Shown: positions 1-50,085 of the stretch, piece after piece | How positions within the stretch are numbered: the first letter of the stretch is position 1 | How the letters are laid out: each line of letters opens with the position of its first letter | Assembly (NCBI GenBank): GCA_043228905.1 | Contig: JBHGNT010000006.1 | Location: forward strand, 16,616,001-16,680,000 | Direction: 5' to 3' | Source: Azolla caroliniana | Lineage: Eukaryota > Plantae > Polypodiophyta | Length of the DNA stretch: 64,000 nucleotides | Translations under genes and position numbers: made by a program | The notes under the pieces: model-generated | What the model saw: only the letters and a program-made list of their open reading frames with translations | Told to the model about the DNA's origin: nothing | The model's database searches: none

Positions 1-893
1 CGGATCGTGACCTTGTTCACCGGTTGCAAGTCTTGGATGAATCGGAGTGACCCATTCTTCTTCGGAACCGTAAACCATCGATTTGAGTACGGAGCACTTG
101 ATGGCTCTAGAATCCCCATCGCCACCTTCTCCTTGAGCAAGTCGATGACTTTCGGAATATGCGCCCGTGGCACCGGAATCGGCTTCAGGTTCCACGGTAC
201 ATGATCAATCGTGAAAATCACCATCGGCTCCACTATCTTTGGATCAATGCATCCGATCTCCCTCGATGTGAACGCGAATGCTTTGCCATGTTGCTCCAAC
301 ATCTCTCGAAACCGTTTTTCTTCTTCTTGTAAGAGGAACCCACCTCCACCGATCCGAAGTTTCTTCCGGGTCTCATCTGTGAAGGCATGTCCGATATCCA
401 CGGACTTCCGAAGTGTCGGATCTCCCGAGACTTCTTTTTTCTTTTGTTCGCTATCGGCGGGTAGTGGTCCCGCGGCCGGTTTCACCTTCTTCTCCACGGT
501 CTTGTATTTCGTACTTACCATTGCTTCTTCTTTGCGGAGCGCATCCGGCCCCATTTTCGCAACGATCTCGTACATCTCGACCGATTCCACCGGGACTACC
601 CGGTTCCCTTGGCTTTTATCTTCCGCAAGCTCTTCAAGCCGTTGTAGTGTATTCCCATAGAACACTTCCTCGATCACTCCCACGATTTCTTCGTCTTCTT
701 TTATTATTGATGCCGACCGTAACTTATCCTCCACTTGTCGGTATTGTTTCTTCATTCCTCCGGTTACGGCCGTGTACGTAGATGCCCCATCCGGGCCGAT
801 TCGTACTTGTTTTGCTCCGAGAGTTTTCTTCCTGTGTGGGGTATCAGGGCTTCTCGGACTATCACTTCCCCACTCCGCAACAGTCCGCTTTAA
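1..893 (-). CDS. pol: Pol (linker + RT N-terminus), partial, -1 frame relative to gag-PR
   Basis: Hand translation is open from the slippery site to the window edge: LKRTVAEWGSDSP...KYKTVEKKVKPAAGPLP...VPWNLKPIPVPRAHIPK...RWFTVPKKNG; homologous to the Pol at 45427-48912. Confidence 0.85.
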
Positions 894-2929
894 AAATCCA
901 TTCTCACTTGGGACAAGAGTTCCCTCTTGTTCCTTTCGTGATTTGCCGGCACCGTTAGGAATTGGACGGATTTCCCTCCGTTTTGGCTCCGAATTCGCGC
1001 AAAAGCCGCACCACTATCGAGCACCTTCGTCTCCATCCGTGAAGCCGTGATAAAGGGTTGGCCGAGGATGACAGAATGTGAAACCTCATCCTGCACAAAG
1101 AAATTTTGGTCAATTTCGACATCCCCGATCTTTACCGTCACATCCGGACAAGCCGCAAACAGGTCTTCTGTCGTTTTCGTGGCTGCCCGAATCTTCCATC
1201 CATGGTTGGTGTTTATAGGCCACTTCCCCTTTCGGTAGAACTCCTTGGACATCAAGTTGATCTCCTATCCGTGATCAATCAATGCTAGCACGGGTTCTTT
1301 GATGTTGCCGATTCGGACCGGAGTCTCCGTAGTCGCACGTGCCCAGTGTGGCCTTGTATAGTGGGAGTTCGGAATTTCGCCTTCCACTTCGGTGTCGTTC
1401 ATTGAAACGGTATTTGCATTCACCCTTGGAGCATTTTCCTCCGTACTTTGTCTCTTCCTTTTCACGAGATCCACGAGAAGATCGTGAAACTCCTTCTTCG
1501 CTATTCCGAGTAGTTCCCGCAGCGAAAAATCTACCCGGCTATCCAAGATTCTTTCCTCGAACACTCTTTTCAAGTCGGTTTGTTGTTCTATGTCCGAGGC
1601 GAGCTTGAATGCCGGAGTCGCCTTTTCTTTTCCCTTACCTCCGGAGTTCCAGCTTTCCGGTATCTTCGATGGTCCGGCCGCATCCTCCGTGCGCCGTCGT
1701 TTCTCGTCCACATACACCTCATGTAATTGACACAGGGCGTATATGCTATTCTTGTCGACAGGGCACTCCCATCCCGTAGCTTCCCGGACGCCTTCCGCGG
1801 TGTTTCGGATATCGTTGGAGTCGGTTTTCTCGGTGTTTCCTAGCACCTCCGGCCAGAAAGACGCCTTCGCTCCCGATGACTCCCCGACACATATTCCCGC
1901 GGTTGTCGCATAGTTGCTTCTTGCCGCTAACTCCTCCTCGAGCACCTTCTTCATGCCGCCTTTCCGGAAGTTCGGTCGGAGTGGCTTCCGAGAGTCCATC
2001 GAATGAATCCGGTTTCCCTCGTAGTAGATGAGATCCCGTCGTAGCGCCTCCTTATGGTCGTCGCAATCCCTCCGATCGTGTTCGGCGCTATCGCACCATA
2101 TGCACCGTCGATCCGTATATTTGGAGCTTGTGGGGCGGTCATCCGACTTCTTCACCATCGCGATCTTTAGATTCTCCATCTCCTTCAGCAACTGCTCCAC
2201 CGTAGACGCGTCGACTCCCTTCTCGGCCGTAATCTCCCGAGCCCTCGGTTGATGGTCTTCCAGTCCCGTTCTCGGTTTCGGAATCGGTTCCGAAACCCTC
2301 TTTTCTTCGTTGGCAAGCCATTGCCCCCTCTTCGTGTACCGCGCGACGATATCCCGCACGCTTTCCCATGTTTCGGTGAGGCCGCTTTCGGTGGTCGTGT
2401 CCTCAAGAAGCACTCCGAGATCTTTCCGGTCCCGGACGTCCACAGCTCGCAAAAACATGATGACTTTGTCCGGTGCAAGAATAGTTTGATCTCTCGCGGA
2501 CAACCTCCCGAACCGACTTTCGAATGTCGAAAACACTTCGAGGACCTTCAGCCCCTTACCTGACGTTTCCACCCAATCCTCGAATCCCCTCCGCGTTGCC
2601 TTGGAGGAGTCCTCGATGGCAAACGTGGTCTTTAACGCCTCTTCGAATGCTTCCCACGTCGGATTTTGTTGTTGCAACCCGTGGATACTCCCTTGAAGCC
2701 CGTCGGTCGCCACCCGGTTAAAGGATGTCACTCGCAGTCCTTCCGAAGCCCGGCACCGGAGCATCTCCGCCTTGTAGTCCTGCAAATATCGCGACACATC
2801 CTTACCATTAAATTGCCCGTTGCGTTGCACGAGCCGCTCTACTGATGCCGAAATCTCCGACATCGTGCGTTGTTCTTGAAGCATCCGTTCGAACATCGCC
2901 ATCATATTGTTAGCTTGTTGAGCCTCCAT
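890..2929 (-). pseudogene. gag: Gag-protease ORF1 with one internal stop (1265-1267)
   Basis: ORFs 1265..3016 and 890..1255 are in the same frame; TAG replaces S in DHG(S)EINLM; likely ATG at 2929 (MEAQQ), downstream of the PBS. Confidence 0.85.
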
Positions 2930-2945
2930 CTCCTTGCCACCCGTC

Positions 2946-2963
2946 TTCACGTCGGGTTCACCA
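2946..2963 (-). promoter_or_regulatory. Primer-binding site complementary to the tRNA-Trp 3' end
   Basis: Sense TGGTGAACCCGACGTGAA is the reverse complement of ...TTCACGTCGGGTTCACCA (plant tRNA-Trp, recalled). Same PBS at 4907-4924 and 43265-43282, and partial at 50086-50100. Confidence 0.88.
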
Positions 2964-9560: not shown

Positions 9561-11854
9561 AATCTACAATTTCCCTCAATACCCTTCCCTTACACACCAA
9601 TACACAATTCACACATAACCCCGTACACACATAAAATAATACACACATCTCACACCCAACCATCCCGCACAATAATGCATATATAAACATTTGCATAATA
9701 TACACACACTGTTACGAGCATGACCATATAATATCCCGTGGTAAGAATTTACCGTAGTAATCTATACACGTGGATAAGTGTGAGGGTTAAATGAGAGTGT
9801 AAAGAAGGGGAGGATTACTTTTAATCCTCGGGATTGAGACAACCCATTAGGTCAAGTGTGAACTTGCCTGGGGGCCTTGGGTTTCGCTATAAATAAGAGG
9901 CCTAGCTACCCTCATTTGATCATCTTTTGACTACATCGAGACTCTGCTCGTGTGGTGGGTCAACTCTTGTAGCGAGCGCGCCAGCACCAGGTACGACTCG
10001 ACGCCACGGCGGTGGTATGGGACGCCGATCGAGGCTCGAGTCCGTCTCGATCCCTTCGCTCGGGGGTGGTCGGGTGGATCGGCACCCTTCTTTCTCTTTC
10101 TCCTTTCTATCTTTCATTTCTTTATCCTTATCTTAAGCTTACATTAGTACTATGATCTATAATATTTGGTATCAGATTTTTTGTACTAATGTTTCTTTGT
10201 TTTTCATTTGTCTTTTGATTGATGCTGATCGATCGTTGTGCGGTTGGCCTTGATCCAGACAACGATCAACAAAGAACTTCGGTAACTCTTTCTATAATTT
10301 TTCTTTCTATTCTCTCTTCTCCCATCTAATCATGTGTTTAGTTTATATGTAATTTTTTTCATTAAATCAATGATGTTGTAGTGGTCTTTAATTGATTATC
10401 TAAAACGTTTACATATGTGCACGAGGTCAATACCTCGTTTGACATATTAATAATATGTGATGAGTGTCGTATGCGTACGAGGTTAATACCTCAATTACGT
10501 ATTACGTTCACGAACATATGTTACGTTTGCGTATCAGTTTAATACCTTGATTTGTTGTAAACGATATGCGTTTGGTCTCGTATGCGTAAGAGGTCAATAC
10601 CTCCATTGCGTATTACGATGATCTCTTATTTGTGGATGTTTCGTGTGCGTAGAGGTATATACCTCGATTACGTATCTCGATCACATCATTTGTGGCTATT
10701 TAATATAACGATATGTTTAATATAGGCATATGTGGTCACATATATATGTATTTGATCGTATATATGTGATAAGTAAACATATGTGTATATTCGTTATTAC
10801 GTGATTATATCGAAAGTTGTCCTTGTCGGGAAAAGGATGTTGGTGGCCGTCCTCACATTTTTGTGAGAATGGCGTTGTCACCATCCCTTTTTCAACATTT
10901 TTTTATTGTTGATAACCACGTTGACGACCTCGATTTCGTTACGTAAAGAAACGCGAATAGCCAAAATGATGTTGAGTACGTAGGGCTTGACCCACTTCAA
11001 GTGAGGTCGCTCCAATGACGCACGTATCCAACATCCCTCCCTCGTTACATGGATACGATGCCACCATGATCTCGTTCTTACGAGAGGCATTCGTAATGAC
11101 GTGACCATGTGATGGCCCACGTGAGCCTACTACGAAACGAGGGCTCATTTGGCTTGACCATTAGGTTGCCCTTTGGCATATGCCATCGTAATTACGAGAC
11201 TTGAGGTTAGGTAACGTACCAACATAGTTTTGGTAAATGAGGGCGAAATAAGGATCCTTGACATATATGTTCTTTTAAAAAAACATATATGATCAATTGC
11301 CTCGCATATCTCTTATACGCATCAAACATTAAGCATTCGAGAAGAGCAACTTACTTGGTTGGCTCAAGTGTTTAATGTATTTGTTCTCGAGGTCTCGAGT
11401 TCAAATATGACCAAGACCATACAACATCCTTGATACATATGACTATAACACATGTTTAGACTTAAGGTCTAAGTGCACCTCGGGGTCCTCGTAATAGGAC
11501 TTAAAGAGCCGAAACCACTTATGTGGGCACCGAAACATAGTTTATTGTTAACATTTTTTTTCGTGTATAAACTATTCATGACGCGAACATACATGGTGGA
11601 GCCTCGGGGAGCCACCATGAAAAAATCGATATAGAGATCAGGGAAAGACATTTATTTGTCACCCCCATGGTTTTTAAAACACCTTTGTGTTACCATAGTA
11701 ACCTGATCTTGAACCTCATCTCATACGTCTAGAGGGGTATTGACGTGAGATAATGATATCGATTAATGCTCGCCCATGATATGTTTACATCACGACATGA
11801 TGTTATGACTATATCTCTGACCTTATCCTATTTCTTTTCCAGAAATAATCTTTA

Positions 11855-13381
11855 ATGGCTCAAATTAACGACCCGATGTCATCCGCTCAAGCGGAAGGAA
11901 CTCAAGGGAATCCTCCTGGACAAATGTCCACTGAGATGTATTTGGCACAAATAACCCAATTCCTTAGTTTCACCGCTCAACAGATGACCGAACTTCGGCA
12001 ATCTCAGAGTGCTCTTGAGGCACGTGTCATTAGTCTACAACGTGAGACTAATAGCCCTGATGAGCGACAAGGTGAACCATCATTTGTCGTTAAGCCATTT
12101 ACGGGAGACAAAAAGGAAAGAACCGAAGAAGCAATCTGCACATGGCTGGGACGATGGGAGTCTCATTTTGAGCTCTATCCCACACCAGATAGTACGAAGA
12201 TTGCATATGTCGGCCGAGAACTCGGGGGTAAGGCCGCCGCCTGGTGGCGTGGCCTCCGTACTATGGGGAAATTGCCAGATACCTGGACAGATTTTGCCAC
12301 GGTTTTTAAGGGCCAATTTCTGCAGCCTCCCTCTCGAACCGAGGCAGCACAAGCTTTAATGAACCTCTCTAGCAGGAAATTTTCCTCGCTAGAAGACTAT
12401 GTTCACCATGCTAGAACCCAAATCCAAAAATCGGGTCTAGAAGGGGACAATTGGTTGATAGCTTGTTTTGTCAATGGCATCCCCAATTCGGACTATCACT
12501 GGATAGTGCACGATAAGGATCCAAAATCCTTCGAAGAGGCCGTTGAAATAGTTCTTCGCTATCAACGCACTTCGAAGAAGGACCATAACAAACCCAACGA
12601 AGCGCCCGGGACTAAGCAGTCGCAATTTGTTGGGAAACGCAAGACACCCAACGAATTCCTGGATCGCGATTGTAAGCGACAACATCCTTTTTGTGTATTC
12701 TGCAAAAAGAAGGGTCATACAAAAGATCAATGTCGAAAGCTCCAACGGAAAGAGCACGACAACAAAGCTAAAGCTGCAGACCATAAAGGTCAGATTCCTA
12801 ATGTCCTTCAGGTCTATACACATCATTTAAGTAATTGTCAATGTTCTTTCCCTCACTATGTATTGGGTCCCAATGATTTACTACGTGCAAACGGGTATAT
12901 CAATGGATCTCCCGTACAATTTTTATTTGATTCGGGAAGCTCACACAATTTTGTGAATGATCGTTTGGTTCAGATATGGGGAATCCAACCCACCGTAAGT
13001 GATCACACCTACACGGTGCACTTGGCTGATGGAAGAGTACAATACATCAACGGGGCGATTCATTCATTAGGAATTTCTATTGATACTTATATAGAGGAAG
13101 TAGACTTCCATGTAATGAATCTTTGTACCACCGATGTAATACTGGGTTATCCCTGGTTTTATAATAAAAACTCTTCTTTATTTATTGATTGGGTTCGTCA
13201 TTCCATTTCTTTTGTACTGAACGATTGTACGCATTTTATTCAATGTGTAAAAAAACAATCCCTCTCGATTGTTTCCTCGTGTCCATCAATATCCGAGTTG
13301 TCTTGTTCTACGTTAAATTTTATTGTGTACTTGATCCGGACATTCACGTTTACAATATCGATAATGTCCCGATTCAATTAA
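11855..13381 (+). CDS. gag: Gag-protease
   Basis: 508 aa; retrotransposon gag core (AAAWW...TWTDF), knuckle [14 protein letters not shown], protease [10 protein letters not shown]. Confidence 0.92.
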
Positions 13382-16290
13382 CATATTTTGAACAACAACA
13401 ACTTGATGAAATCTTAAATGATTTTCATGATGTTTTTCCAAGTGAACTACCTGATGGGTTACCTCCTAAACGTAATATAGACCATCGTATAGATATTGTA
13501 CCTGGTGTTGCACCAATAAGTATACCTCCGTATCGCTTAAGTCGATCCGAAGAAGATGAGGTATCTAAGCAACTCAAGGACTATTTACGAATGGGTTATA
13601 TACGTTATAGTAAATCTCCATGGGGTGCACCAGTTCTCTTGGTTAAAAAGAAAGAGGGCACATGGCGTATGTGTATTAATTACCGACGCTTGAATAAAGT
13701 GACGATCAAGAATTCGTATCCATTGCCCCGGGCTGACGATCTAATTGACCGTCTCCAGGGAGCTCGGTATTTTACGAAACTTGATCTCCGTACTGGCTAC
13801 CATCAAATACGAATAAGTGAGGACGATGTTCCTAAAACGGCATTTCGTACGCGCTATGGCCATTACGAGTTTTTGGTTATGCCTTTTGGTTTGACCAATG
13901 CTCCGGCTACTTTTCAACAAGAAATGAATGACATTTTCCGAGAACAACTTGGAAAATTTGTCGTTATTTTCTTGGATGATATTTTAGTTTATAGTCGTAC
14001 ATTACAAGAACATGCTAGACATGTCCGCTTTGTTTTACAAACATTGCGTGACAAACAGTTTTATGCGAAGATCTCAAAATGTGAGTTCTTCAAGAAATCA
14101 ATTACTTATCTAGGACATCTCATAACCGAACGAGGAGTTGAAATTGATCCTTCTCGCATTGAGAAAATCAAGCTTTGGCCCACTCTTCGGAATATTCGAG
14201 AAGTTCGATCATTCCTTGGTTTTGTGGGGTTTTTGCGAAAGTCTCTTCGTAATTACTCCCAATTGACGACGCCGTTTACTGATCTTTTAAAAGGTCAAAC
14301 GCGTAAGTCTACAAAACCTATTGTGTGGAATGCTACACTAGACCTTGCATTTAAGGAACTCAAGGACCTAGTTTGCAAGGCTCCTTCACTTCTTTTACCT
14401 GATCCTTCAATACCTTTTGAGGTCGAAACCGATGCAAGCGATTATGCTATAGGTGCTGTCTTGTATCAAGATGGTAAACCAATAGCATTCGAGAGTAAGA
14501 AACTTGATTCTGCTCAATGTCGGTATACAGTTCAAGAAAAGGAATTATTTGCAATTATACATGCGCTCAAAACATGGCGCCATTATCTTTATGGAAATCA
14601 CTTTGTGGTAACTACGGACCACGAGTCCTTGAAATATTTTTGTGACCAACAAGACCTGAAAGGTCGTAAGGCACGATGGGCTGATCTCATCCAGGACTTT
14701 GATTTTTCCATACGATATCGTAAAGGTTCCATGAACACTGTCGCTGATGCACTAAGTCGCATCCGTGAAGTTAACACGCTTAGCTTCACTGAAATATCAT
14801 CAGATCTTTATGATCACCTTCGAGGAAAGTATCCTGATGACAGTTATTTCGCAAAATACTGGGCAAGAGTTGAGTCTGGAACAGACACCACCACATCCTC
14901 GAAGGAATACTTCCACATTGCTAACGGTTTGCTCTACCGTAATGGGAAGGTTTGTGTTCCAGATTTACCCGAGGTCAAAAAGAGGATTCTTTTTGAATGC
15001 CATGATGTACCCTCAGCAGGGCACCCTGGAATACATCGTACACTCGTTCTCATCTCCACTCAATTTTATTGGCCTAAGATGCGTCCTGACATACATAGCT
15101 ATGTGACTAAATGTCACCAGTGTCAGGTTAACAAAGCCGAGCGACTTAAAGTCGCAGGACTTTTACATCCCCTGGACATTCCCAATAATAAGTGGGAAAG
15201 TATATCCATGGATTTTATCGTTAGCCTTCCTCGCACCCAAAAAGGTCATGATGCCATCTGGGTTGTCGTTGATCGACTAACTAAAATGGCCAGATTTATT
15301 GCTACTAAAACCACGGTAACAGCTCCTGAATTGGCTTACCAATTCGTTGACGAATTGTTTCGTTTTTATGGGTTACCGATGGATATCGTGAGTGATCGAG
15401 ATCCAAAGTTTACTAGTGACTTCTGGACACAAGTCTTTAAGAAGTTAGAAACTACGTTGAGCATGAGCTCCACGGATCATCCTCAATCCGATGGACAGAC
15501 AGAACGAGTAAATCAAATTATTGAGGACATGCTTCGAGCATACGTTGGTGCAAAACCAACAAAATGGGAACGTTATCTCCCAATTTTGGAGTTTGCTTAT
15601 AACAGCTCCAAGCATACGTCGACGGGATATAGTCCTTTTATGTTGATGTATGGTTTTCAGCCACGAGCCCCGATTGATGTTACTATACATCATGATGAGT
15701 TGCGAAGTACGCAAAACTTTCTTCGGGATATGCAAGATATGTTGCATATTGCACGAGATAATATAAAAACAGCTCAAGATAGAGCGCGTTTTTATGCCGA
15801 TCATCATAGGCAACCTCGTGTATTCAACCCTGGACAGAAGGTATTTTTACGTGTACCTCACAATTCTAAGACATTGTCTACAGGTAAGTGCGCTAAGTTA
15901 GCCCCACGGTTTTGTGGACCTTTTACAGTCCTCAAACGAATTGGGTCATCAGCCTATCGTCTCGCTCTTCCCGATGGTGTCGGAATTCATCCAGTCTTTC
16001 ATGTGAGTCGTCTAAAAGAACTTCTAGGTTCTGGCGACAATATCGTTACGACTGAAACTCTGGTTACTTCTGAAGAATTATCTTCTAAACCACATGTACC
16101 AGAAAGAATTCTCGATGTTAAAACAAAAAAATTACGTACTAAAGAAATCCGAGAATTCAAAATAAAATGGATGGATAAATCAATAAAAGATGCCACATGG
16201 GAACGCGAAAATACTCTTAGAACTAACTTCCCTAACTTTCCATTGCAAGAGTGCAATGTTTTAAAGAGGGGGAGTATGTTACGAGCATGA
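13318..16290 (+). CDS. pol: Pol: RT-RNase H-integrase-chromodomain, probably expressed by -1 frameshift
   Basis: RT ([13 protein letters not shown]), RNase H (ETDAS, EKELFA, DALSR), integrase (HHCC, SMDF, SDRD, GQTE, GPF), chromodomain (PERILD...KW...ATWE). No plausible ATG; -1 frame relative to gag. Confidence 0.92.
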
Positions 16291-18916: not shown

Positions 18917-26057
<7,141 letters not shown>

Positions 26058-33225: not shown

Positions 33226-35845
33226 GTCCCGTTATGTAGACAGGGACCTTCTTGCCGTAGACCGCCTTCCGGAGAGCTGGTGCCACAGTAAGCGCCTCTT
33301 TTAATCTCCGGATCGATTCCATATGTTCATCACTCCATTCGAATTTTTTCCCTTTTTTAAGCAATCCGTAGAGCGGTTCCGCGACGTGTGCATAGTGCGG
33401 CATTCAAAGGTGATAGAACGTGCATGCCCCCAGGAACCTCCGCACCTCCGTAACCGACTTGCATTTTTCCTTCATCGTGGAGATGGCCTCTACCTTTGCC
33501 CGAGACGGTTTCTGGCCGTAAGGCCCGCACAGGTGACCGACCACAAGGATCTCTTGCTGCCCGAAAGCCGACTTCTCTCCGAAGAGGGTGAGCCACGCAC
33601 CCCCTAGCCTTTGCAGTACCTTCTCGCAGACGTCAATGTGGTGCGCCACGAATGTTCGGCATCCGTCCGGCCCAACCGTCTCATCCTTATCCTCCACCGG
33701 GCACCCCTTTATCGGTATATCATCCTGAATGCCATTGAGTTTGTCCCTCCCTACGGCAGGGTACACATGCGCACTAATCTGAGAGGTGTCCGCATCGTCG
33801 TGACATCCGTGCTATCCTCGGCTAGTTGGAATTGGTCGTACCCTGAGTATAGATCCCCGACCGAATAGATCGACCTCCCGGCGAAGGCCTCTACAAACCC
33901 GTCAATCGTCGGTCCGACTCCTGCGTTCCGACTGGTCACTTTATTGACCGGTTGCAGGTCCTGAATGAAACGCAACGTGCCATTCTTCTTAGGCACAGTA
34001 AACCACCAATTCGAGTATGGGGCACTCGACAGTTCGAGGATGACCATCTCCACCTTCTACTTTAGCATCTCCATCAGCTTCGGGATGTGAGCTCTGGGTA
34101 TTAGAATAGGTTTGAGATTCCATCAGCTCAACGACCGTCGGGTCCACGCACCCAATCTCTCCTTGTGAGAATGTGAAGGCCTTCCCGTGCCTCCCAAGTA
34201 TTCTCCGAAACCGTTCCTCCTCCGCCGGCAGTAGAAAGCCATCCCCACCAACGTTGAGCTCCCATAGCGTTGTGTTGGTGAACTAGTGTCCTATACCGGA
34301 CGAATACCGTAGACTTGGGTCTGACGCGACCCCTTTCATCCATAACCCGCAGCCCTCCAGCAAGGGTGCAACGACTGGCCTCACCTTCCGGTCCACAGTC
34401 TTGTACCTCGTATGCACGCAGGCCGTCCGATCCGACTTGAGCCTTTCCCCAAAGTTAGTAATGATTCCGTACATCTCCACCGAGTTAACCGGAATCATTC
34501 GGTCTTCACTGAGGCCTTCATCGATCACCTTCCCAATTTCCCCGAGGGTCTCATCGAAAGAGACTGCCTCCACTGCGCCGCTAATTTCCTCATCGGGGGT
34601 GAGGACTCCACGTATCTTGAGTCGTTCCTCCGCTCACTTCTTCTCCTAGCCAATGATGTCGGCTATCATACAACCTCCGCTATTGGAGAACCAAAACTTC
34701 CGACCTATGGTACATGTGTGGGGATCCTCCGAGGTGTCCGGACTATCGCGGCCCCATGCCTTGATAGCCCTCTCTAAAAATCCCCGCTGCTTTCGCCGCT
34801 GAGGGTCTCGCGATTGCGCTCATGGTTCGGTCGCACGATCAAGAATTGGACGGAGTGTCGTCCATCTTGGCTCTTCACGCGTGCGTACGCCGAACCGTTA
34901 TCCAGCACTTTCGTCTCCATACGTGCTGCCGTAATGTACGGTTCTCCGAGTATCACCGGATCCGAGGATGTCTCCTGCACGAAGAAGTGTTGGTCGATCT
35001 CGACATCACCGATTTTCACCCGCACATTTGGGCAAGCCCCATGTAGCTCTTCCGTGGCGCATGTCGTTGCTCATATTTTCCACCCGTTCTTGGTGTTAAT
35101 CGGCCACTTGCCTTTCTTGTAGAAGTCCATAGACATCAAGTTGATTTCCGAACCGTGGTCTACTAATGCTACCACCGGCTCCTGGACGTCCCCGATCCTA
35201 ACTAGGGTCTCCGTAGTGGCTCTTGCCTAGTGCAGCTTTGAATAGTGGCCTTCCGCTAACTCGTCTTCTAGCGCCATGTCTTCTAGGTGCGTCGTTTGCA
35301 CCTCCACCGGCCTCTCTGGCTCCGGCTCTGTCAAAAGTCTCTTCCACTTCACCAAGTCCACGATGGAGTCATGGAATTCTTTCTTGGAGATCCCGAGCAC
35401 TTCCCTCAGCAACAACTCTACCTTGCTGTCGAGGATTCGTTCCTCAAGGACCTTCCGTAGGTTCGTCGTTCTTTCTATCTCGGTGCTCAACCGGTAGCCG
35501 ACTTTCTTTGCTTTATCCGGTGTGCCGGCAGCACCGGCGTCATTCCGCTTCAGCCCGAATCGGGTCTTGTACCGTTGCAAAGATCCGGAACCTCCTGCCT
35601 TCCCCACACGCTTGTCTTCTACCAGGACCTCGTAGTTCTGGCACGCGGCTTCCACAAAACCGGTCTTTTCTTCGACCGGATCGTTCCACCCGGTGACCTC
35701 CTGGACCCGCCTTTCCGCACGGTCCACTTCTTCCCTTCTCAACCGTACACCGATGAGGCCTTCTAGTACCACCGGCTAGAACCCGGAGTCTTTCGTCTTC
35801 CGGCCTTCATCACTCCCGACCCGAATTCCTGCGGATACTGAGTAT
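33226..35845 (-). mobile_element. Internal fragment of the Trp-primed Ty3 lineage (gag end, PR, frameshift site, RT)
   Basis: Homologous to 44360-47085; LVDHGSEIN; GGATTTTTAG at 34783-34774; no LTRs, so the ends look like deletion junctions. Confidence 0.88.
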
Positions 35846-39900: not shown

Positions 39901-42900
39901 AGCACGACAAAGTCTCCACTACTCGCCGGTTCTTCATCCGACTAGTCATCTAGACTCAGCCGTCTCCACTACTCACCGGTTCTTCATCTGACTGGTCATC
40001 TCGACTCAGCCACTCATTCGGTCCACTGAGCCGGAATGAGATCGGACTCTCTTCTAGAGTGTCGAAGTCTTCATCTTCTATCTGGACCTCCTCGGACTCA
40101 CTAACCTCATCTTCCGGAATCGGGTCTTCGTCGGGAGTTGGAGTCGTTAAGGAGTACCATGATGCCATCTCATCAAACTCAACATCTCGGCTTACTCAGA
40201 CCTGCTTAGTCCGGGGTATAGCACTTATACCCCTTCTACTCATGCGAATAGCCAACTAGGATGCATTTCTCTGAATTCGGATCTAGCTTCCTCCTCTTCT
40301 CATCCAGTACATGCACATATGCTATGCTACCGAATATCTGAAGGTGTCTCAAATTCAGCTTCTGCCCGAAATACAACTAATGTGATGACACCTTGTCTCC
40401 GATCCGGTTTTGGATGTAGACGGCCATCTGGACTGCCTCAGCCCAATAGAATTGGGGCATGCTCTTCTCCTCCAGCATTGCCCTTGCCGTGTCGACAATC
40501 GACCGGTTCTTCCTTTCGGCCACACCGTTTTGCTCCGGCGTGTATTTGCAGCTGAATTCTCTCCGAATTCCGTTCTGCTGCAGATAACTATTGAATTGGC
40601 CAGAAAAATATTCTTTTCTGCGTTCCGACCGCAAGCACTTGACCTTCTCTCTGTTTCCCGTTCAACTAAGCTTTGCAAGTTCCGGAAACATTCAAATACT
40701 TCGCTCTTTCGTTCAATGAGGTAGATCCACATGTGCCAGCTATAGTCGTCGATGAAGGAGACGAAGTATCGACTCCCGCCATGACTAACGTTCTATGCCG
40801 GTCCCCATACGTCCGAATGTATTAGATCGAGCTTGTTACGGCTCCGGTTTTGTTCAGTGGGGAATGGAAGCCAATGTTGCTTCCCGAGTTGGCAGGCTTC
40901 ACAAATTTCGTCCTTCCGGCTGCTAAGTTTCGGCAAACCGAAGACAACTTGTTTCGATTGTAGGTCCTGAAGCCTCCGGTAGTTCACGTGGCCGATCCGC
41001 TTGTGCCATAGGTCAATGTCCGACTCGACCTTCTGCCCTTTGGCAAACATGGTGGTGCCAACGTCATTAGTGTTGAGGATGAACATCCTTCCTTCTCTGT
41101 GCCCTTGCACAATTATCTAGCCTTCTTCCTCGATGAAGCACCTGACATGAATAAACTGCACCTGCATCCCCTGGTCGACGATTTGTCCGATCGACACCAG
41201 GTTCTTTGTGATTGTCAAAACGTGTAATACGTTCATCAACTTCCCCTTTTGTCTGACATGGCTTAAAGGGACTTCTCCGACATGCACAATCGGTTGAGGG
41301 GTGTCGTCTCTGGTTTCGACAATCCCCAGTTGCTCCGGTTTCTCCAAAAAAGAGAACTAGTCTTCATGGCTCGTCATGTGGTTGGACGCTCCGTAATCAA
41401 TGTACCATACTTCCTCCAATTCGGAAGTAGTCTTCTTCATCGAGTTAGCCTTGTGCTTCATCACGAAGGTTGGCCCTTTACCGGTTTTCCCAGTTCCGGA
41501 TCCTTCTGATACTTCCACGTAGTGCGAGCTTTGTTGGTTCTCCCGACCGGTTTTGCCGGATCCGAATTTGTCCGAATCGGCGTGCTTCTTCCAACACTCG
41601 CTTTCCTTGTGGTCCTTTTTGCCACAGTACCGGCATTCCATGTGGGCCTTTCCTTGCCGGTTCCCGGCGCCGCTTTGACTCCCCCTATTTGTGGAGGGTT
41701 CGGAACTGCTGTTGACACCACCTCTGTGCCTCCGGTCCTGCCCTTGCCGGCCACCTCCATTGCGTGCCGACCCACCTCGTCCACCACGTCCATGGGGGCG
41801 ATCTTTCTCCGTGTACAACATCTGACCGTCCAATTGAGTGGTCCTTGACCCACTCGCGTGCTTTTCTTCGACCATCAACATCGATTGCAAGTCGAAGAAA
41901 GACAATGGTTTCTCTCGGGTGAAAATCGTTGTCCGGATTGGCCCGTACCTTTGTGCTAGACCACCGAGGCAGATTTGTACCATCTCGTCTTCATCCACCG
42001 TCACGTTGATGGACCCGAGTGTGTCGCAAATATCCTTTATCTTGGTGGTGTAATCCGTAACCGACATGTCTCTTTGCCAGATGTTGTTCAGCTCTTGCCA
42101 GAGCTGCAACTTACGGGTTGTGGTACTCATGGCGAAAATCTTCCTTAGATTTCCCCAGGTCGCCTTCGGCGTCTCTACATCCTTGATGTAGCCGAGCATC
42201 TGATCGTACACACAGGACGCGAGGCAATACAATACTCAGCTTGCTCCTTGCTCCCATACCGGGAAGTCATTGTGTGTCGGCTCCGACGCTACCTCGTTTG
42301 TTCCTTCCTCAAAGCTCCAATATACATGCCCCAGAAGGTACTGGTGCATCTTGTATGACCAAAACGCGTAGTTGCTCCGGTCGAGCTTCTTTGTTGGAAG
42401 TGAACTCGCCATTCCTTTGTCCATATCTTCTCTCTGTTTGTTGTTACTGGGTTCTAGGGTTCGTCTATGGAACCATGTGAATGTAAACGTGCAAAAGCAT
42501 TATATAGAACCGGCTCATCCTGATAGCAATAGAGAATAAGATGAAGGTTTGATGGAGAAGCTTAGTACACAAAGAGTATACGTTGTCGTGAAGAAAACCG
42601 TCCCCAGGCACAAACCATGTATAGTGTGTGTGAACTGGCCCTTACACGTGGGCACGCCCCTCGTTGTGCAGTAGATAGGCAGGCACAAAGGTCACATCCT
42701 AGGTAGCAATATCCTATAGGGAGAATCAAGGAGTATCTCTGTCCGAAAGGACAGAGAATTAATGTGATGTAAACGGGTAAGACGGCCTCCCTCCTTGAGC
42801 TATAAAAGAGAGGGAGACGGGGAGAGAAAGACATCGCGCGCTAGAGGGGACGAAGTGCTGTTGGACTGGGACCGAGCTCGTCTCCTCACCATAGCTTTCT

Positions 42901-43304
42901 TTGCGCAGGTTCTCGAGAGGCTGATTCTGCTCCGTGGAACGCCCGTGTGCTTCCGGCAGAATCTCCATCTTGCTCTCCTGTGAGCGTGGGTGATCAGGCA
43001 TCGGCATCCGTCTTGCCGACCTGGTCGGCTATATCTGTTCGAGTCATCTGCATACATATATTTATATACGCGTTCTTATACTCTATCTCCTGCCCAACTC
43101 GTGTCTCTTGTGTTGATTGGGCTGCGTTCCCGCGCGCTTCTTTGTCTATCCGTGTGTGAGCGTGTCTCTCTCTCTCTCTCTCTCTTTTCCCCACCTATTC
43201 CTCGGTCCAAGACCCCAGTGGTCCCGCCTTGTTCTCCACGCACGCGCGTAACAACGCGACATCTTTGGTGAACCCGACGTGAACAGGCGGCAGAGGAGTA
43301 GAAG

Positions 43305-45430
43305 ATGAGGGGGTCGGACCTTGCAGAAGCCATGGCTTCGGCTATAGACCGTATAGTGAGTGCGCGCGAAGGCACCGGTGCCCTTGATAGGGCTATCGAG
43401 GCGGTTGTCGGTACGATCGGCCGGTTTAGTGGAAAGGATGCCACGAGCTACTTGGCGTCCTACGGGCTGAGATGGTAATGAGGGACATCCCGGAAGAGAG
43501 GCGTCTAGCCGGATTCCCTTGAGTGGCGATGCCGGGTATCCATACGGAGGTGCTCGAGGTACGGGCCGAGAGCCGGACCTGGGAGGAGTTCGAAGGTCAG
43601 CTCCTCGAAAGATACGGGCTTGAAGATGCGCTTCGACTTTCGAAGCGGGACTTCATGGAGTGGGTGGAGACCCCCAACAAAGGAAGGAACACATCAGTGC
43701 TCCTTCGGGAGTTTGAGGAACGCTTCGCGCGCCTCTCGGTGCTTGACCAGACCGTTCTGGACACAAGCCGTATCCTATTGTTTGTTAAGTCGGTTGACGA
43801 GCGGGATCGGGAGCAGGGAGGCCTCCTACTGGAGACTGATGACGGGCTGACGGCCGACTGGGCCGTGGTGAAAAGGGTCTGTGGCCGTTTCGACAAACGG
43901 TGGGAATGGGTTGACAAAGGGTCGACAGGGGCAGGCTCTGTCGCAGCAAAGAAGCTCGAGCCAACACCACCAACGCGAAGGGAAGAGACCTGAGATTGGC
44001 TCGAGACCGGGTCGGCTTCAACCGGCGTGGTCAAGGGCTCGTCCGGGGGAGCAGCTCTGGAGGAGCTGACGCGAATGGTAAGGGATCTCCAGATCGCCCA
44101 AGCACGGAGGGATGGTGGCGACCAAGCCCGTGACCGACGACCTCTGGCTGAAAACAGGTGCATGTGGTGTGATGCAGTTGGGCACATCCGAAAGGACTGC
44201 GGGAACTTCGTCGAGGCGATGAGAAGCAACGTGGTGTACCTGTGGAACGGTCGGGTGCACGCCAGCGAGACCTAGAGGGCCCTGAACCTGAACGTCGGGC
44301 GAGGGGGTATGAAAAGGCTGATGCAGGAGGCGGCGGCTCGTCACGCGGAGATCGTTCACTACTCGGCGTCAGTTGGTATTCGGGTCGGAGGTGGCGAGGC
44401 CCCGAAGACGAACAAAGACGGGTTCTGGCTGACGATGCTGGAAGGCCTCGCTGGCGCACGGCTGAGGAAAGAAGAGGTGGACCGCGCGGAAAAACGGATC
44501 CGGGAGGTAACCGGGTGGAGTGACCCGGTGGAAGAAAAGACGGGCTTCGTCGAAGCCGCTTGTCAAAACTACGAGGCTCTGGTGGAGGACAAGCGGGTAG
44601 GGAAAACCGGAGGGGCCGGGCCCTCGCAGCGATATGAAACTCGATTCGGGCAAAGGCGGAATGAGGCTGGTGTAACCGGCGCCCAGGATAATCCCAAGAG
44701 GGGCGGGTACCGGCTAGGCACAGAAATCGAAAGATCCACGGACCTGCGAAAGGTCCTGGAAGAACGAATCCTCGACAGCAAGGTGGAACTGTCGCTGAGG
44801 GAAGTGCTCGGGATCGCCAAGAAGGAGTTCCACGACTCCATCGTAGACTTGGTGAAGAGGAAGAGGCTGTCGACGGAGACAGAACCGGAGAAGCCAGTGG
44901 AGGTGCGGACGACGCACATAGAGAACATGGCGCTGGAAGACGAGTTGGTGGAGAGCCACTATTCGAGGCCGCACTGGGCCAGGGCGACCATGGAGACCCC
45001 TGTGAAGATCGGAGATGTTCATGAACCGGTGGTGGCGTTGGTGGACCACGGTTCAGAAATCAATTTGATGTCCATGGACTTCTATAAGAAGGGGAAATGG
45101 CCGATCAACACCAAGCACGGGTGGAAGATACGGGCAGCGATGCGTGCCATCGAAGAACTGCATGGAGCCTGCCCGAATATACGAGTAAAGATCGGCGATG
45201 TCGAGATTTACCAACACTTCTTCGTATAGGAGACGTCCTCACATCCGGTTATACTAGGAGAACCATACATCACGGCAGCACGGATGGAGACCAAGGTGCT
45301 GGACAACGGCTCGGCCTATGCAAGGGTCAAGACCCAGGATGGGCATCACTCGGTCCAGTTCCTGACGGTGAGACCAAACCATGAGCGGAACCGCGAGACC
45401 CTCGGGGGCGAAAGTCAAGAGGATTTTTAG
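43305..45430 (+). pseudogene. gag: Gag-protease ORF1 (one frameshift and several stops)
   Basis: ORFs 43523, 44027 and 44309 are in one frame; CMWCDAVGHIRKDC; LVDHGSEIN; ends ...EDF-TAG. Confidence 0.88.
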
Positions 45431-48400
45431 AGAGGGCTATCAAGGCGTGGGGCCGCGATAGTCCGGACACTCCGGGAAAACCCCACCAGTGTACGATAGC
45501 GAAAAGGACCTGTACTATAAGTAGGAAATTTTGGTTCTCCGACAACGGAGGGTGTACGATAGTTGACATTGTTGGATGGAAGAAAAAAAGGGCGGAGGAG
45601 CGACTTCGGGCATGTGGCGTCCTCGGCCTTGGAGAGGAAATCAACGGAGCCGTGGAGACGGCCTCTCTCGTCGATACCTTGGGGGAGCTGCGAGAGGTAG
45701 TCGGACGAGTCCTTGAAGAGGACCGGATGATTGCGGTATGTTCGGAAAGGATGTACGAAGTCATCGCAAACTTCAGTAGAGGGTTCGAGTCGGATCGGAC
45801 GGCACGGGTGGACACGAGGTACAAGACTGTGGACCGGAAGGTGAGGCCAGTCGCGGCTCCCTTGCCGGAGGGCAGCGAGTTGTGAATAAAGGGGGTTGCG
45901 TCGGACCCGAGTTTACGAAATCCGGCCCGCATAGGACACACGTTCACCGACATAACGCTGCGTGAGCTCAAAATCGGTGGGGGTGGCTTCCTACTGCAGG
46001 CGGAAGAGGACCGTTTTCGGGGAATGCTCGGAAGGCACGGGAAGGCTTTCGCGTTTTCACCAGAGGAGATCGGGTGCGTAGACCCGACAGTCGTGGAACC
46101 GATGGTGATATTCACGGTACCGCATGTGCCGTGGAGTCTCAAACCGATTCTAGTACCCAGAGCTCACATACCGAAGCTGATGGAGCTGTTAAAGCAGAAG
46201 GTCGAGATGGGAATCCTCGAATTGTCGAGTGCCCCATACTCGAATCGGTGGTTTACCGTGCCGAAGAAGGACGGCACGCTGCGCTTTATTCAAGACCTGC
46301 AGTCGGTCAACAAGGTGACCATTCGAAACGCAAGAATCGAACCGACAATAGACGAGTTCGCGAAGGCCTTCGCCGGAAGGTCGATTTACTCGGTCGGTGA
46401 TCTCTACTCGGGGTACGATCAGTTCCAGCTTGCCGCAGAGAGCAGAGACATCACGACATTGCGAACTCCTCTCGGCCTAGTACGGATGTGTACCCTGCCG
46501 CAAGGAGGGACGAACTCGGTGGCTCACATGGTGAACGCAATGAACAAGGTGTTGAGGGATTGTATCCCGGACATCACCATGCCGTTTTTGGATGACGTCC
46601 CGATCAAGGGATGCCCGATGGAGGAAAGGGACGAGACGATCGGACCGGACGGATGCCGGAAATTCGTGGCGATGCACATCGATGACTGCGAGAAGGTGCT
46701 GCAGAGGTTGGAGGGCGCGAGGCTCACCTTCTCCGGGGGAAAATCGGCGTTCGGGCAATTAGAGATCATGGTCGTCGCACACCTATGCGGGCCGTATGGC
46801 CGGAAACCATCTCCGGCTAAAGTGGAAGCCATCTCCGCGATGAAGCACGACTGTAGCTCGATCACGGAGGTTCGGAGGTTCTTGGGAGCGTGCGCGTTCT
46901 ACCACATATGGATCCCGCATTACGCTCACGTCGCGGAGCCGTTATACGGGTTGCTGAAAAAGGGGCGAAAATTCGAGTGGAGAGACGAGCATACAGAGTC
47001 TGTCCGAAAGATGAAGGAAGCACTTGCCGCAGCTCCGACGCTCCGAAAGGCTGTCTACGGAAAGGACACTCCAATTTACGTAACGGTAGACACGAGCCCG
47101 ACCAGGATCAGATGGGTCGTCAACCAAGAGGACGAGGACGTCATGCGTTTCCCGATATGGTTCGGCGCAAAGGTCCTCAGCGAGCGACAGCGAGGATACG
47201 CCCAAGTTAAACGCGAGCTCTGGGGTATCGTTTCGGCGGTAAAGGCCGATAAAGACTACCTGATCCGGGCAGAGGTAATTATCGAGACGGACTGCCTGCC
47301 AACTCTTGGCATGGTTTCCGGATGCACAATGCCGGACCTGGCAATGCTCAGGTGGATAGCGTACATCAAGTCCCTGAATCCGGAAATACGACACATTTCC
47401 GGGAAAGACAACGCCATGGCCGACATGCTTTCAAGGGCGAGGTTCGAAAACGAGGGTGGCATGGTTTCGGAGGATGAGGAAGTCGGCGTGGACTTCTTCG
47501 AGGCGGCCTACGTAACAACCGGCAGGGAATGCACTCCAACGCTTAACGATTTCGACGAGAGCAAGTACAACGGGGAGTGGCTACAGATCGGCGAGTTCCT
47601 GAAAACAATGACACCGGACGCGGCATGGACAAAGGATGAGGCCGACCGGATCCGGAAGAAAGCATACTTATTCTTTCTCCGGGACGGGTACATATGGAAG
47701 CACCCGAAGAAGAGGAACGACATCCCACTCCGAGTGGTGGCGAAGGAGGAACAGGAGCATTTGCTGGCGGTGTACCACGATAGCCTGCGGGCTGGACACC
47801 GTGGAACGTGGGCCACGTTCGAAAAGCTAAAGGGGAAGTACTGGTGGTCGGGACTATACCGGGACGTGCATCGGTTCGTGACGACTTGCGAGAGCTATCA
47901 GGTGCACTCCATGATCCGACATCGGGACGAGCTTCACCTGACCTACCCTCCAACCGTCCACTTCAAGTGGATGGTGGATTTGGTAACGATGCAGATGGGG
48001 GTAGGATAGATGCGGTATCTAGTGCTGGCTCGGGAAGATCTAATGAACCAGGTTGAAGGCCGAGCCCTGCAGAACAAAAAGACGGCAGCCGTGTGGGGGT
48101 TTCTGATTGAGGACGTAGTATGCCGATACGTTTGCGTAGGGAAGATCGTGGCTGACCGTGGTGAGTTGGACGCAGAAGAGGCCGAAGAGTTGTTCGACAG
48201 GCTAGGAGTCAAACTCTCGCTCACCACAGCGTACAATCCGGAGGCGAACGGGAAGGTAGAGCGCGAACACGGGCCGATTGTCAAAGCGCTAGTCAGGGCG
48301 TGCGGAGGCCAGGTCGGGAACTGGCCACGGCTGCTACCTTATGCCTTGTGGGCAGACCGGACTACGCACAGTTCGGTGACAGGGTTCATGCCGGCCGAGC

Positions 48401-48912
48401 TTATGTTCGGACAGAAACCGATCATGCCAACGGAACGGACGATCTCCTCGTGGGCCACGGTGGACTGGAGGGATGAGATGAGCCGGGAGGAACTATTGGC
48501 GGCGCGGATTCGGCAGCTCGAGCAGAGGCCGGAGGACGTAGAGCGAGCCGCGGAGAAACTTCGGGTAGCGAGGATAAGGAACAAAGCCCAGTTCGACCGA
48601 ACACACCGGCTCCGACCAAGGAAGATCGAGGAAGGCGACTGGGTGCTAGTCTACGACAGCAGCCTCGACAATCAACACAAGGCCACGCGGAAGTTCGCGA
48701 GGAGGTGGTTCGGGCCTTACGTAGTAACAGGCGCCAACGACAATGGGATGTACCATCTCGCGGAGCTCGACGGTACGAGAATGGCGATACCGGTAGCGGG
48801 AAAGAAGATCAAAGCGTTCAAGAAACGACACGACGGTGAGCCGGAGCAAGGGGGCACGAACAACAACGACGAGCAACCCGAGGCGGAGGACAAACCGGTA
48901 AACAAGGAATAA
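45427..48912 (+). pseudogene. pol: Pol RT-RNase H-integrase in the -1 frame, two point stops (45883, 48007), no chromodomain
   Basis: DLYSGYDQ, FLDDVPIKG, VDTSP, ADMLSR, GH/CESY zinc region, VADRGE, NGKVER, WFGPY. Confidence 0.9.
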
Positions 48913-50085
48913 GGGCAATGACCAGTTTTCTCCAGGAGGAACCCAATTTTGGCGCATACCAGTGGATGCGCGGTTAGGTGGGGGCGGATGTCGTGAAGAA
49001 ACCCGTCCCCAAGCGCAAACCATGTATAGCGTGTGTGAACTGGCCCTTACACATGGGCACGCCCCTCGTTGTGCAGTAGATAGGCAGGCACAAAGGTCAA
49101 ATCCTAGGTAGCAATATCCTATAGGGAGAATCGAGGAGTATCTCTGTCCGAAAGGACAGAGAATTAATGTGATGTAAACGGGTAAGACGGCCTCCCTCCT
49201 TGAGCTATAAAAGAGAGGGAGACGGGGAGAGAAAGACATCGCGCGCTAGAGGGGACGAAGTGCTGTCGGACTGGGACCGAGCTCGTCTCCTCTCCATAGC
49301 TTTCTTTGCGCAGGTTCTCGAGAGGCTGATTCTCCTCCGTGGAACGCCTGTGTGCTTCCGGCAGAATCTCCATCTTGCTCTCCTGTGTGCGTGGGTGATC
49401 AGGCATCGGCATCCGTCTCGCCGACCTGGTCGGCTGTATCCGTTCGAGTCATCTGCATACATATATTTATATACGCGTTCTTATACTCTATCTCCTGCCC
49501 AACTCGTGTCTCTTGTGTTGATTGGGCTGCATTCCCGCGCGCTTCTTTGTCTATCCGTGTGTGAGTGTCTCTCTCTCTCTCTCTTTTCCCCACCTATTCC
49601 TCGGTCCAAGACCCCAGTGGTCCCGCCTTGTTCTCCACGCACGCGCGTAACAACGCGACAACGTGTGAGAGACAGAGAGAGCAGAATGTAAGCGTAGATT
49701 CAAAAAAATGAAAATACTCTATAACTCTGTACATACAACGTGCTAAACAACATTATTTATACAAGTCCGTAAAGGATTGATAGAAGTACTGACAGGTACT
49801 TCAATATTCCTACGTGCGACTGGTACTAACTATGAGACAATGATTACCTAGTAGTCTAGGCTACTACTAGGCTTCCGGTTCCCGCTCGAATCCGGTTGTC
49901 CGATCCGTCTCCCCGATCCGGCCAGTTGTTTTTGGATACCAATCCGGATCCGATTGAGCTTGCTCGCTCAACATAACACTTATAACCCTTTTGCTCTTTC
50001 GAGTAGCTGATCAAGATACATGTCTCGGCTTTGGCAAAATCCAACTTCCTCCACTTCTCCTTTGGCACACGCACATATGTGATGC

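Follow-up and report, generated by a model that had tools for sequence, protein, structure and literature searches.

How does a retrotransposon make its polymerase when the frame that encodes Gag and protease closes at a stop codon and the polymerase frame lies one base behind it? The question is raised by a stretch of 64,000 nucleotides from Azolla caroliniana (assembly GCA_043228905.1, contig JBHGNT010000006.1, positions 16,616,001 to 16,680,000 of the forward strand), here called the window, which holds three copies of a Phygy-like Ty3/gypsy element with long terminal repeats (LTRs): copy 1 (minus strand, at about 899), copy 2 (minus strand, at about 34783), and copy 3 (plus strand, 45421). 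Open reading frame 1 (ORF1) of the element encodes Gag and protease (PR), and ORF2 encodes reverse transcriptase (RT), RNase H (RH), and integrase (INT); we refer to the boundary between them as the junction. From comparison of sequences within and beyond this genome, we think it very probable (about 0.88) that the junction is a conserved Gag-protease/RT-RNase H-integrase boundary that works as a programmed -1 ribosomal frameshift.

The junction in the window and genome-wide

ORF1 ends in Asp-Phe-stop in all three window copies. The sequence GGATTTT and the stop that follows it lie at 45421-45430 (plus strand, TAG), 34783-34774 (minus strand, TAG), and 899-890 (minus strand, TAA), and the pol frame of every copy passes through this heptamer in the -1 frame. 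An initial annotation of the window, made from the sequence alone, had placed a G_GAT_TTT_TAR ending at these positions and had Pol opening there in the -1 frame; both features were recovered. In copy 3, the predicted slippery heptamer G_GAU_UUU (45421..45427, plus strand) carries the last ORF1 codons, Glu-Asp-Phe, and the stop codon TAG (45428..45430) forms the first half of a 6-nt spacer (45428-45433). The junction spans 34718..34783 in copy 2 (minus strand; heptamer 34783-34777, TAG) and 836..899 in copy 1, a member of a young family (minus strand; heptamer 899-893, TAA). Copies 2 and 3 form one family group at 76% identity, and copy 1 is about 70% identical. Because all three copies bear private stops elsewhere, the window alone cannot show that the break is programmed.

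The best 40 genome matches of copy 1 were 100% identical over 351 nt. When 14 young copies were fetched whole, seven had exactly two intact ORFs, of 712 and 1241 codons from stop to stop, which overlap in the -1 frame; the LTRs of these seven are 97-100% identical, and the frame is broken at the junction only. This layout agrees with the earlier proposal of a shift after the protease that yields Gag-PR or Gag-PR-RT-RH-INT, the shift itself being suggested by the sequences. Junctions were counted among 90 loci from the same genome, some of which were fetched twice and 8 of which had no anchor: GGATTTT formed the last 7 nt 5' of the ORF1 stop in 79 of the 82 anchored loci. A pattern made of heptamer, stop, and stem start had 2625 genome matches, compared with 2 for a reversed-pattern control. 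Relatives with gag-PR and pol in one frame and no motif, the case that the initial annotation had named as contrary to its proposal, were looked for and did not occur as a family; six scattered genome matches were in-frame variants, with one extra base placing both ORFs in one frame. Together, these genome-wide comparisons and the cross-family comparisons below argue that the frame break is programmed and is not a product of decay.

The in-frame variants bear on an alternative hypothesis, namely that RNA polymerase, slipping within the T run, would add a base and so yield an in-frame mRNA. There are five T's in GGATTTTT, and the six genomic copies have their extra base there. However, families with G_GAT_TTC (L184-186, L192, and L215) have only three T's and the same layout, and polymerase slippage would not require a downstream pseudoknot at ribosome spacing. 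We consider this hypothesis scarcely credible.

Conservation of the heptamer across families and proteins

A metagenome scan returned 80 related loci, 70 of which could be anchored. Among loci chosen only because ORF1 ends in DF-stop, 59 of 60 had GGATTTY. In all 26 nonredundant DF-ending loci, a G preceded GAT, across nine different preceding amino acids; GAC occurred in none, against a codon background of 212 GAT to 98 GAC, and TAA, TAG, and TGA were all found as stops. At the level of these sequences, the heptamer is thus shown to be kept as nucleotides (RNA), not merely as protein. Two other families have the heptamer G_GGU_UUU. The pol frame was open from the heptamer in 57 of the 70 anchored loci.

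In one subgroup (L192, L194, L202, L204, and L216), the heptamer (G_GAU_UUY or G_GGU_UUU) lies five codons 5' of the ORF1 stop, so the stop falls inside the first stem of the downstream structure (stem 1); the distance of the stem is fixed to the heptamer and not to the stop. Physcomitrium and fern proteins with the same ending as this subgroup (PL or PF) were also observed. In a further locus, L205, G_GUU_UUC lies one codon 5' of the stop and pol is apparently in the -1 frame (open for 169 codons); from its sequence, L205 is a possible intermediate between the -1 families and a sister clade with pol in the -2/+1 frame, described below.

The subgroup is informative about the hypothesis of a separate route to Pol, in which ribosomes would either reinitiate past the ORF1 stop or start at an internal AUG of a shorter RNA, and the stem would have a different function, for example in packaging. 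Several families do have a Met at a similar place in the pol frame, about 100-110 codons in, and the -2/+1 clade has a pol-frame AUG shortly 5' of the ORF1 stop. Taken over the families, however, the first pol-frame Met falls anywhere from codon 3 to codon 111, and the frame is open from the heptamer itself, closing 1-56 codons upstream in the -1 families. Moreover, the stem keeps its distance from the heptamer although the stop has moved five codons downstream in the subgroup. Separate expression of Pol therefore appears very improbable to us.

The same ending was found in proteins. Among 120 ORF1 homologues, 70 end in DF (liverwort proteins included) and 5 in GF or NF, in 24 a DF or GF stands five residues short of the C terminus, and 2 end in VFx; the remaining 19 do not fit, and many of these are spliced gene models or fragments. 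The internal frequency of DF in ORF1 homologues is 0.002. Seven distant homologues without a taxon (P0199, P0202, P0212, P0231, P0150, P0157, and P0180) end in DF, NF, or GF, and this end lies 127-138 residues after the protease motif. On the strength of these distant sequences, the signal may be much older than mosses. A fungal range was considered and is not shown: the DF-ending P0199, P0202, P0212, and P0231 carry no taxon, and the Basidiomycota clusters in Atlas are look-alikes only.

Protein models also bring in a possible intron, lying between protease and RT, whose removal from part of the transcripts would join both ORFs as in Ogre elements. Ogre has the same GAG-PROT/RT-RH-INT split and resolves it by splicing, according to the REXdb paper (PMC6317226), and all 13 long fused homologues, from two annotated genomes, are gene models that bridge the junction and are annotated as single proteins. 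The junction is readable in 11 of them, and all 11 leave it out; the stretch bridged varies among models of related elements (P0123, P0124, P0128, P0130, and P0133), as it would if these were predictor artefacts. The sequence between junction and RT (the linker) is open in the pol frame for 120-140 codons and has 4-19 stops in each other frame (in 18 of 23 families with the anchor motif), it has the same T content as RT, and the families share no GT donor near the stop. ORF1 and ORF2 overlap, unlike the Ogre layout of two ORFs separated by a noncoding intron, and splicing would leave the heptamer and the stems unexplained. We regard it as a very unlikely explanation.

Downstream RNA structure and the proposed mechanism

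Structure was compared in 24 families with <80% identity (mean identity, 0.50), taken from the 70 anchored loci minus 13 (4 short or without the heptamer, 9 with a broken pol frame) plus copy 3. Stem 1 begins 5-6 nt 3' of the heptamer and is formed by ViennaRNA in all three window copies (z, -2.56, -1.95, and -0.74). In copy 3 it pairs GGGCTATC (45434..45441, plus strand) with GATAGTCC (45457..45464, plus strand); in copy 2 the arms are 34770-34763/34747-34740 (minus strand), and in copy 1 they are CGGACTGTTGC/GTGATAGTCCG (887-877/865-855, minus strand). These are the arms of the initial annotation, which had remarked that the sequence differs while pairing is kept. Across the 24 families, 90.4% of 240 cells are paired, compared with 27-46% in slid controls, and 7 of 10 pairs have changes on both sides. 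The covariation score was 0.451 versus 0.260 in shuffles, and none of 500 shuffles reached it. Relatedness among sequences can itself outscore such shuffles, so a second control was added, in which the pol-frame peptide was recoded with synonymous codons; stem 1 beats it in 23 of 24 families. We regard stem 1 as firmly supported by these alignments.

A second helix (predicted stem 2) would pair the stem 1 loop with a stretch farther downstream. In copy 3, GTGGGG (45447..45452, plus strand), in the stem 1 loop, can pair with CCCCAC (45481..45486, plus strand); in copy 1, GTGGGG (873-868) can pair with CCCCAC (841-836), and in copy 2, TGGGG (34756-34752) with CCCCA (34723-34719), both on the minus strand. 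The pairing of the loop with downstream CCCCA(C) was thus correctly located by the initial annotation, with only five pairs in copy 2. Its description of a covarying pseudoknot in three copies stands as to predicted pairing, which is possible in all, but not as to number, since copies 2 and 3 are similar enough that the window holds only two independent versions. A short duplicated stretch lies 3' of stem 2 in copy 3 (about 45490-45530) relative to copy 2, with the pol frame intact.

Beyond the window, all 24 families have a predicted stem 2 helix of 4-8 bp that ties the loop to sequence located 9-16 nt past stem 1, with sequences that differ by family, for example, GCGAGA/TCTCGC, GCAGGGA/TCCTTGC, GGGACA/TGTCCC, and ATGAGGGT/ACCCTCAT. 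Own-family pairing averages -11.7 kcal/mol, compared with -9.6 kcal/mol with permuted partners (p 5e-5), and another score also separated own-family from cross-family pairing (p 1e-4). Of 192 windows farther downstream, 16 score as well as stem 2. An H-type pseudoknot is the likely fold in these models. Rfam gave no matches at E up to 1 for three junction loci.

Besides the fused gene models above, several observations weigh against a pseudoknot-driven frameshift. Stem 2 pairs were chosen as best helices, and taken one at a time, only 12 of the 24 families pass the synonymous control; stem 2 is weak in L158, L187, L146, and L216, and in L158, 22 of 23 foreign partners pair equally well. The minimum-energy fold of copy 3 takes competing hairpins (ViennaRNA, a model without pseudoknots). 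Both sides are open in one of the six in-frame variants. A single accession series accounts for most of the 80 metagenome loci, and some loci are nearly identical to families of this genome; the loci are independent families but probably come from few host species, which places cross-species support at the protein level only. RNA reads from another species fell on gag or on scattered parts only and never covered the junction.

These observations leave room for a -1 shift driven by stem 1 alone, with stem 2 incidental in many families, a version that the failures under the synonymous control and the competing hairpins of copy 3 would favor. Against it, own-family stem 2 pairing exceeds cross-family pairing, loops without a G run have matched partners, and the register of the partner moves by 2 nt between copies 1 and 3 with pairing kept. 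We consider a role for stem 1 alone rather unlikely, and we retain the pseudoknot in the mechanism proposed below.

We infer ribosome slippage, its efficiency, and its role in the Gag-to-Pol ratio. A -1 shift placed after the protease and stimulated by a local H-type knot agrees with all the comparative tests that were run. The junction has the features of canonical -1 signals: a zero-frame heptamer of the X_XXY_YYZ type, a 3' structure within 5-9 nt, and a long -1 ORF from the site. The majority of ribosomes would terminate after Asp-Phe and release Gag-PR. A minority, paused with GAU in the P site and UUU in the A site by the H-type pseudoknot predicted 5-6 nt further on, would slip back one base to GGA and UUU, going on to make Gag-PR-RT-RH-INT. 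Gag would then equal protease in amount, and Pol would be lower. Alpharetroviruses make equal Gag and protease and less Pol. Umbraviruses and dianthoviruses accept G_GA as X_XX, with spacers of 5-9 nt, according to a 2016 review (PMC5009743).

A separate observation concerns gag transcription. Polyadenylated reads from another species (runs X7 and X8), about 90% identical, cover gag in the sense orientation at 5-19x (window positions 1350-2950, minus strand), and not protease or pol; they could be from a gag-only transcript or a truncated copy.

The sister clade, the element, and known recoding systems

In L190 and L195, ORF1 ends in CAG GTT TTT NAC TAG, and pol is in the -2/+1 frame for >1100 codons. 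The corresponding junction pattern had 100 matches in the A. caroliniana genome and none in the control, and loci of this sister clade were fetched (L221-L254 in G000). Fourteen copies were fetched whole, and in four of them both ORFs (737-739 and 1164-1181 codons) are intact and the LTRs are 99.9-100% identical. Both stems are retained, with stem 2 helices of 8 bp, and the spacer is one base shorter, placing the structure 5 nt downstream. A first RT tree, with a very long outgroup, left the clade unrooted; a tree of the protease region rooted it and showed it to be monophyletic (100/99) and nested in a clade of -1 families (100/97).

A UGA in the -1 frame is present at the site in 89 of the 100 matches. 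[quoted passage not shown] By sequence, we judge that the sister clade probably uses -2 slippage on AG_GUU_UUU; DNA alone cannot tell -2 from +1, and +1 slippage seems unlikely to us, as does reinitiation at the nearby AUG, which we rate slightly lower still. The clade shares with the arterivirus nsp2TF -2/-1 system of PRRSV the G_GUU_UUU site, a downstream ORF in the -2 frame, and the -1-frame UGA. PRRSV, however, has no RNA structure and depends on nsp1-beta and PCBP, which act at a C-rich motif, whereas the sister clade has a covarying RNA structure 5 nt downstream. The C-rich motif CCCANCUCC, about 11 nt downstream, is absent from the sister-clade sequences examined, and stem 1 occupies its position.

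Copy 3 is an LTR retrotransposon of 7077 bp on the plus strand. Its 5' LTR (42584..43261, TG...CA) is preceded by the target-site duplication ACGT (42580-42583) and followed by a primer-binding site (43266..43283) that complements tRNA-Trp(CCA) genes of the host at their 3' end. ORF1, Gag (DUF4100)-protease, runs from 43305 (start approximate) to 45430, with private stops and the protease motif DHG near 45044; ORF2, linker-RT-RNase H-integrase, spans 45421..48912 in the -1 frame, with two private in-frame stops. A polypurine tract lies directly 5' of the 3' LTR (48989..49660, about 96.6% identical to the 5' LTR), and ACGT recurs at 49661-49664. The domain order is GAG-PROT-RT-RH-INT. A Pfam scan of pieces of copy 3 recovered RT, RNase H, and the integrase zinc finger; it found no Chromo domain in copy 3 and did match Chromo in a neighboring chromovirus. 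The target duplications follow NCGN (ACGT in copy 3; ACGT, ACGC, ACGG, GCGT, CCGG, and CCGT in fetched copies). Young relatives of copy 3 are 6.8-7.4 kb long, and copies of the -2/+1 clade are 7.9-8.0 kb long.

The REXdb entry for Phygy gives a 4-bp NCGN duplication, a tRNA-Trp primer, a length of 7656-9968 bp, and an ORF organization of "ND" (not determined) (Neumann et al. 2019, PMC6317226). A homologue search brought up named sequences from Physcomitrium patens, Riccia sorocarpa, and Adiantum nelumboides, which taken alone would point to a moss as host. We call the element Phygy-like, a filing by features and P. patens homologues rather than by RT grouping with REXdb references. The element and the Phygy entry both have the 4-bp NCGN duplication, the tRNA-Trp primer site, no chromodomain, the order GAG-PROT-RT-RH-INT, and an internal part filled by coding region. 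Lengths agree only in part (6.8-8.0 kb here, 7.7-10.0 kb there), copy 3 and its young relatives falling below the listed range and the -2/+1 clade inside it, and for the ORF layout GAG-PROT overlapping RT-RH-INT stands here against "ND" there. Tcn1 and Selgy, the plant clades with overlapping ORFs in the REXdb table, have the break between GAG and PROT, whereas here it follows PROT.

The window also contains a young chromovirus-type gypsy element with a chromodomain (11849-16290, plus strand). In contrast to the Phygy-like junction, its frame break between protease and RT is found in this copy alone: at that point most of its sister copies lack 2 bases, and those fetched have a frame that stays open across it, for up to about 1050 codons. 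At 24699-25196 (minus strand), surrounded by nested fragments of gypsy and copia elements, lie exons of a host AAA-ATPase-like gene, identified by eye from the translation. Sequences matching the 3' end of tRNA-Trp cluster at G000:C8:17796786-17823372, C16:4989494-5105657, and C5:10105608-10112202; the clusters are in part regularly spaced (about 1.2 kb on C8 and 0.87 kb on C5) and are likely tRNA gene arrays.

The initial annotation had called the signal plant-virus-type. This description holds for the heptamer and not for the stimulator, which in dianthoviruses and umbraviruses is a bulged stem-loop that pairs with a distant hairpin (PMC5009743 and PMC4737148). The junction shares with red clover necrotic mosaic virus and pea enation mosaic virus RNA 2 a G_GAU_UUU near the stop of the upstream ORF and decoding by plant ribosomes, but the partner there is a distant 3' hairpin, whereas here a local knot is predicted, with a last loop of 9-16 nt. 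In Rous sarcoma virus, the protease is in the gag frame, upstream of the shift. Its gag-pol -1 frameshift uses a pseudoknot with 5% efficiency (PMC5009743); the shift at the very end of ORF1 and the pseudoknot stimulator are common to both, whereas the heptamer differs, the knot there is a larger, three-stem one, and the virus is a vertebrate retrovirus to which no relationship is shown. The same review describes -1 frameshifting as common in animal LTR elements; these and PEG10 resemble the present case in having a heptamer and a 3' structure that yield a Gag-Pol fusion in a Ty3/gypsy-type element (PMC5009743). For plants, it cites a 2003 survey in which elements with separate frames were found only in +1 (PMC5009743).

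We found no description of this signal in the literature searched, a scope with subscription papers and REXdb Additional file 1 outside it, and no relative among the viral contigs searched; passages of PMC7466625, PMC11871058, and PMC11358816 likewise offered nothing on it. We are inclined to think, with some reserve, that no earlier group of plant LTR retrotransposons is known in which a pseudoknot drives a -1 shift after the protease, and that in this group one young, amplifying clade switched to a pseudoknot-driven -2 shift through a change from G_GAU_UUU to AG_GUU_UUU and a spacer shorter by one base. If true, the clade would be a natural spacer-length experiment that converged, with no stimulating protein, on the -2 site of arteriviruses.

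The proposed junction would supply the Pol expression layout for the Phygy entry in REXdb, and it would explain the false introns that annotation pipelines draw across the junction in moss and liverwort genomes. It would also provide a -1 frameshift cassette for plant ribosomes that is encoded in a host genome, in thousands of copies and with two dozen structural variants supplied by nature. Between them, the -1 and -2/+1 clades have a common fold and differ in the heptamer and one spacer base, which may make the question of what sets the direction of the slip testable.

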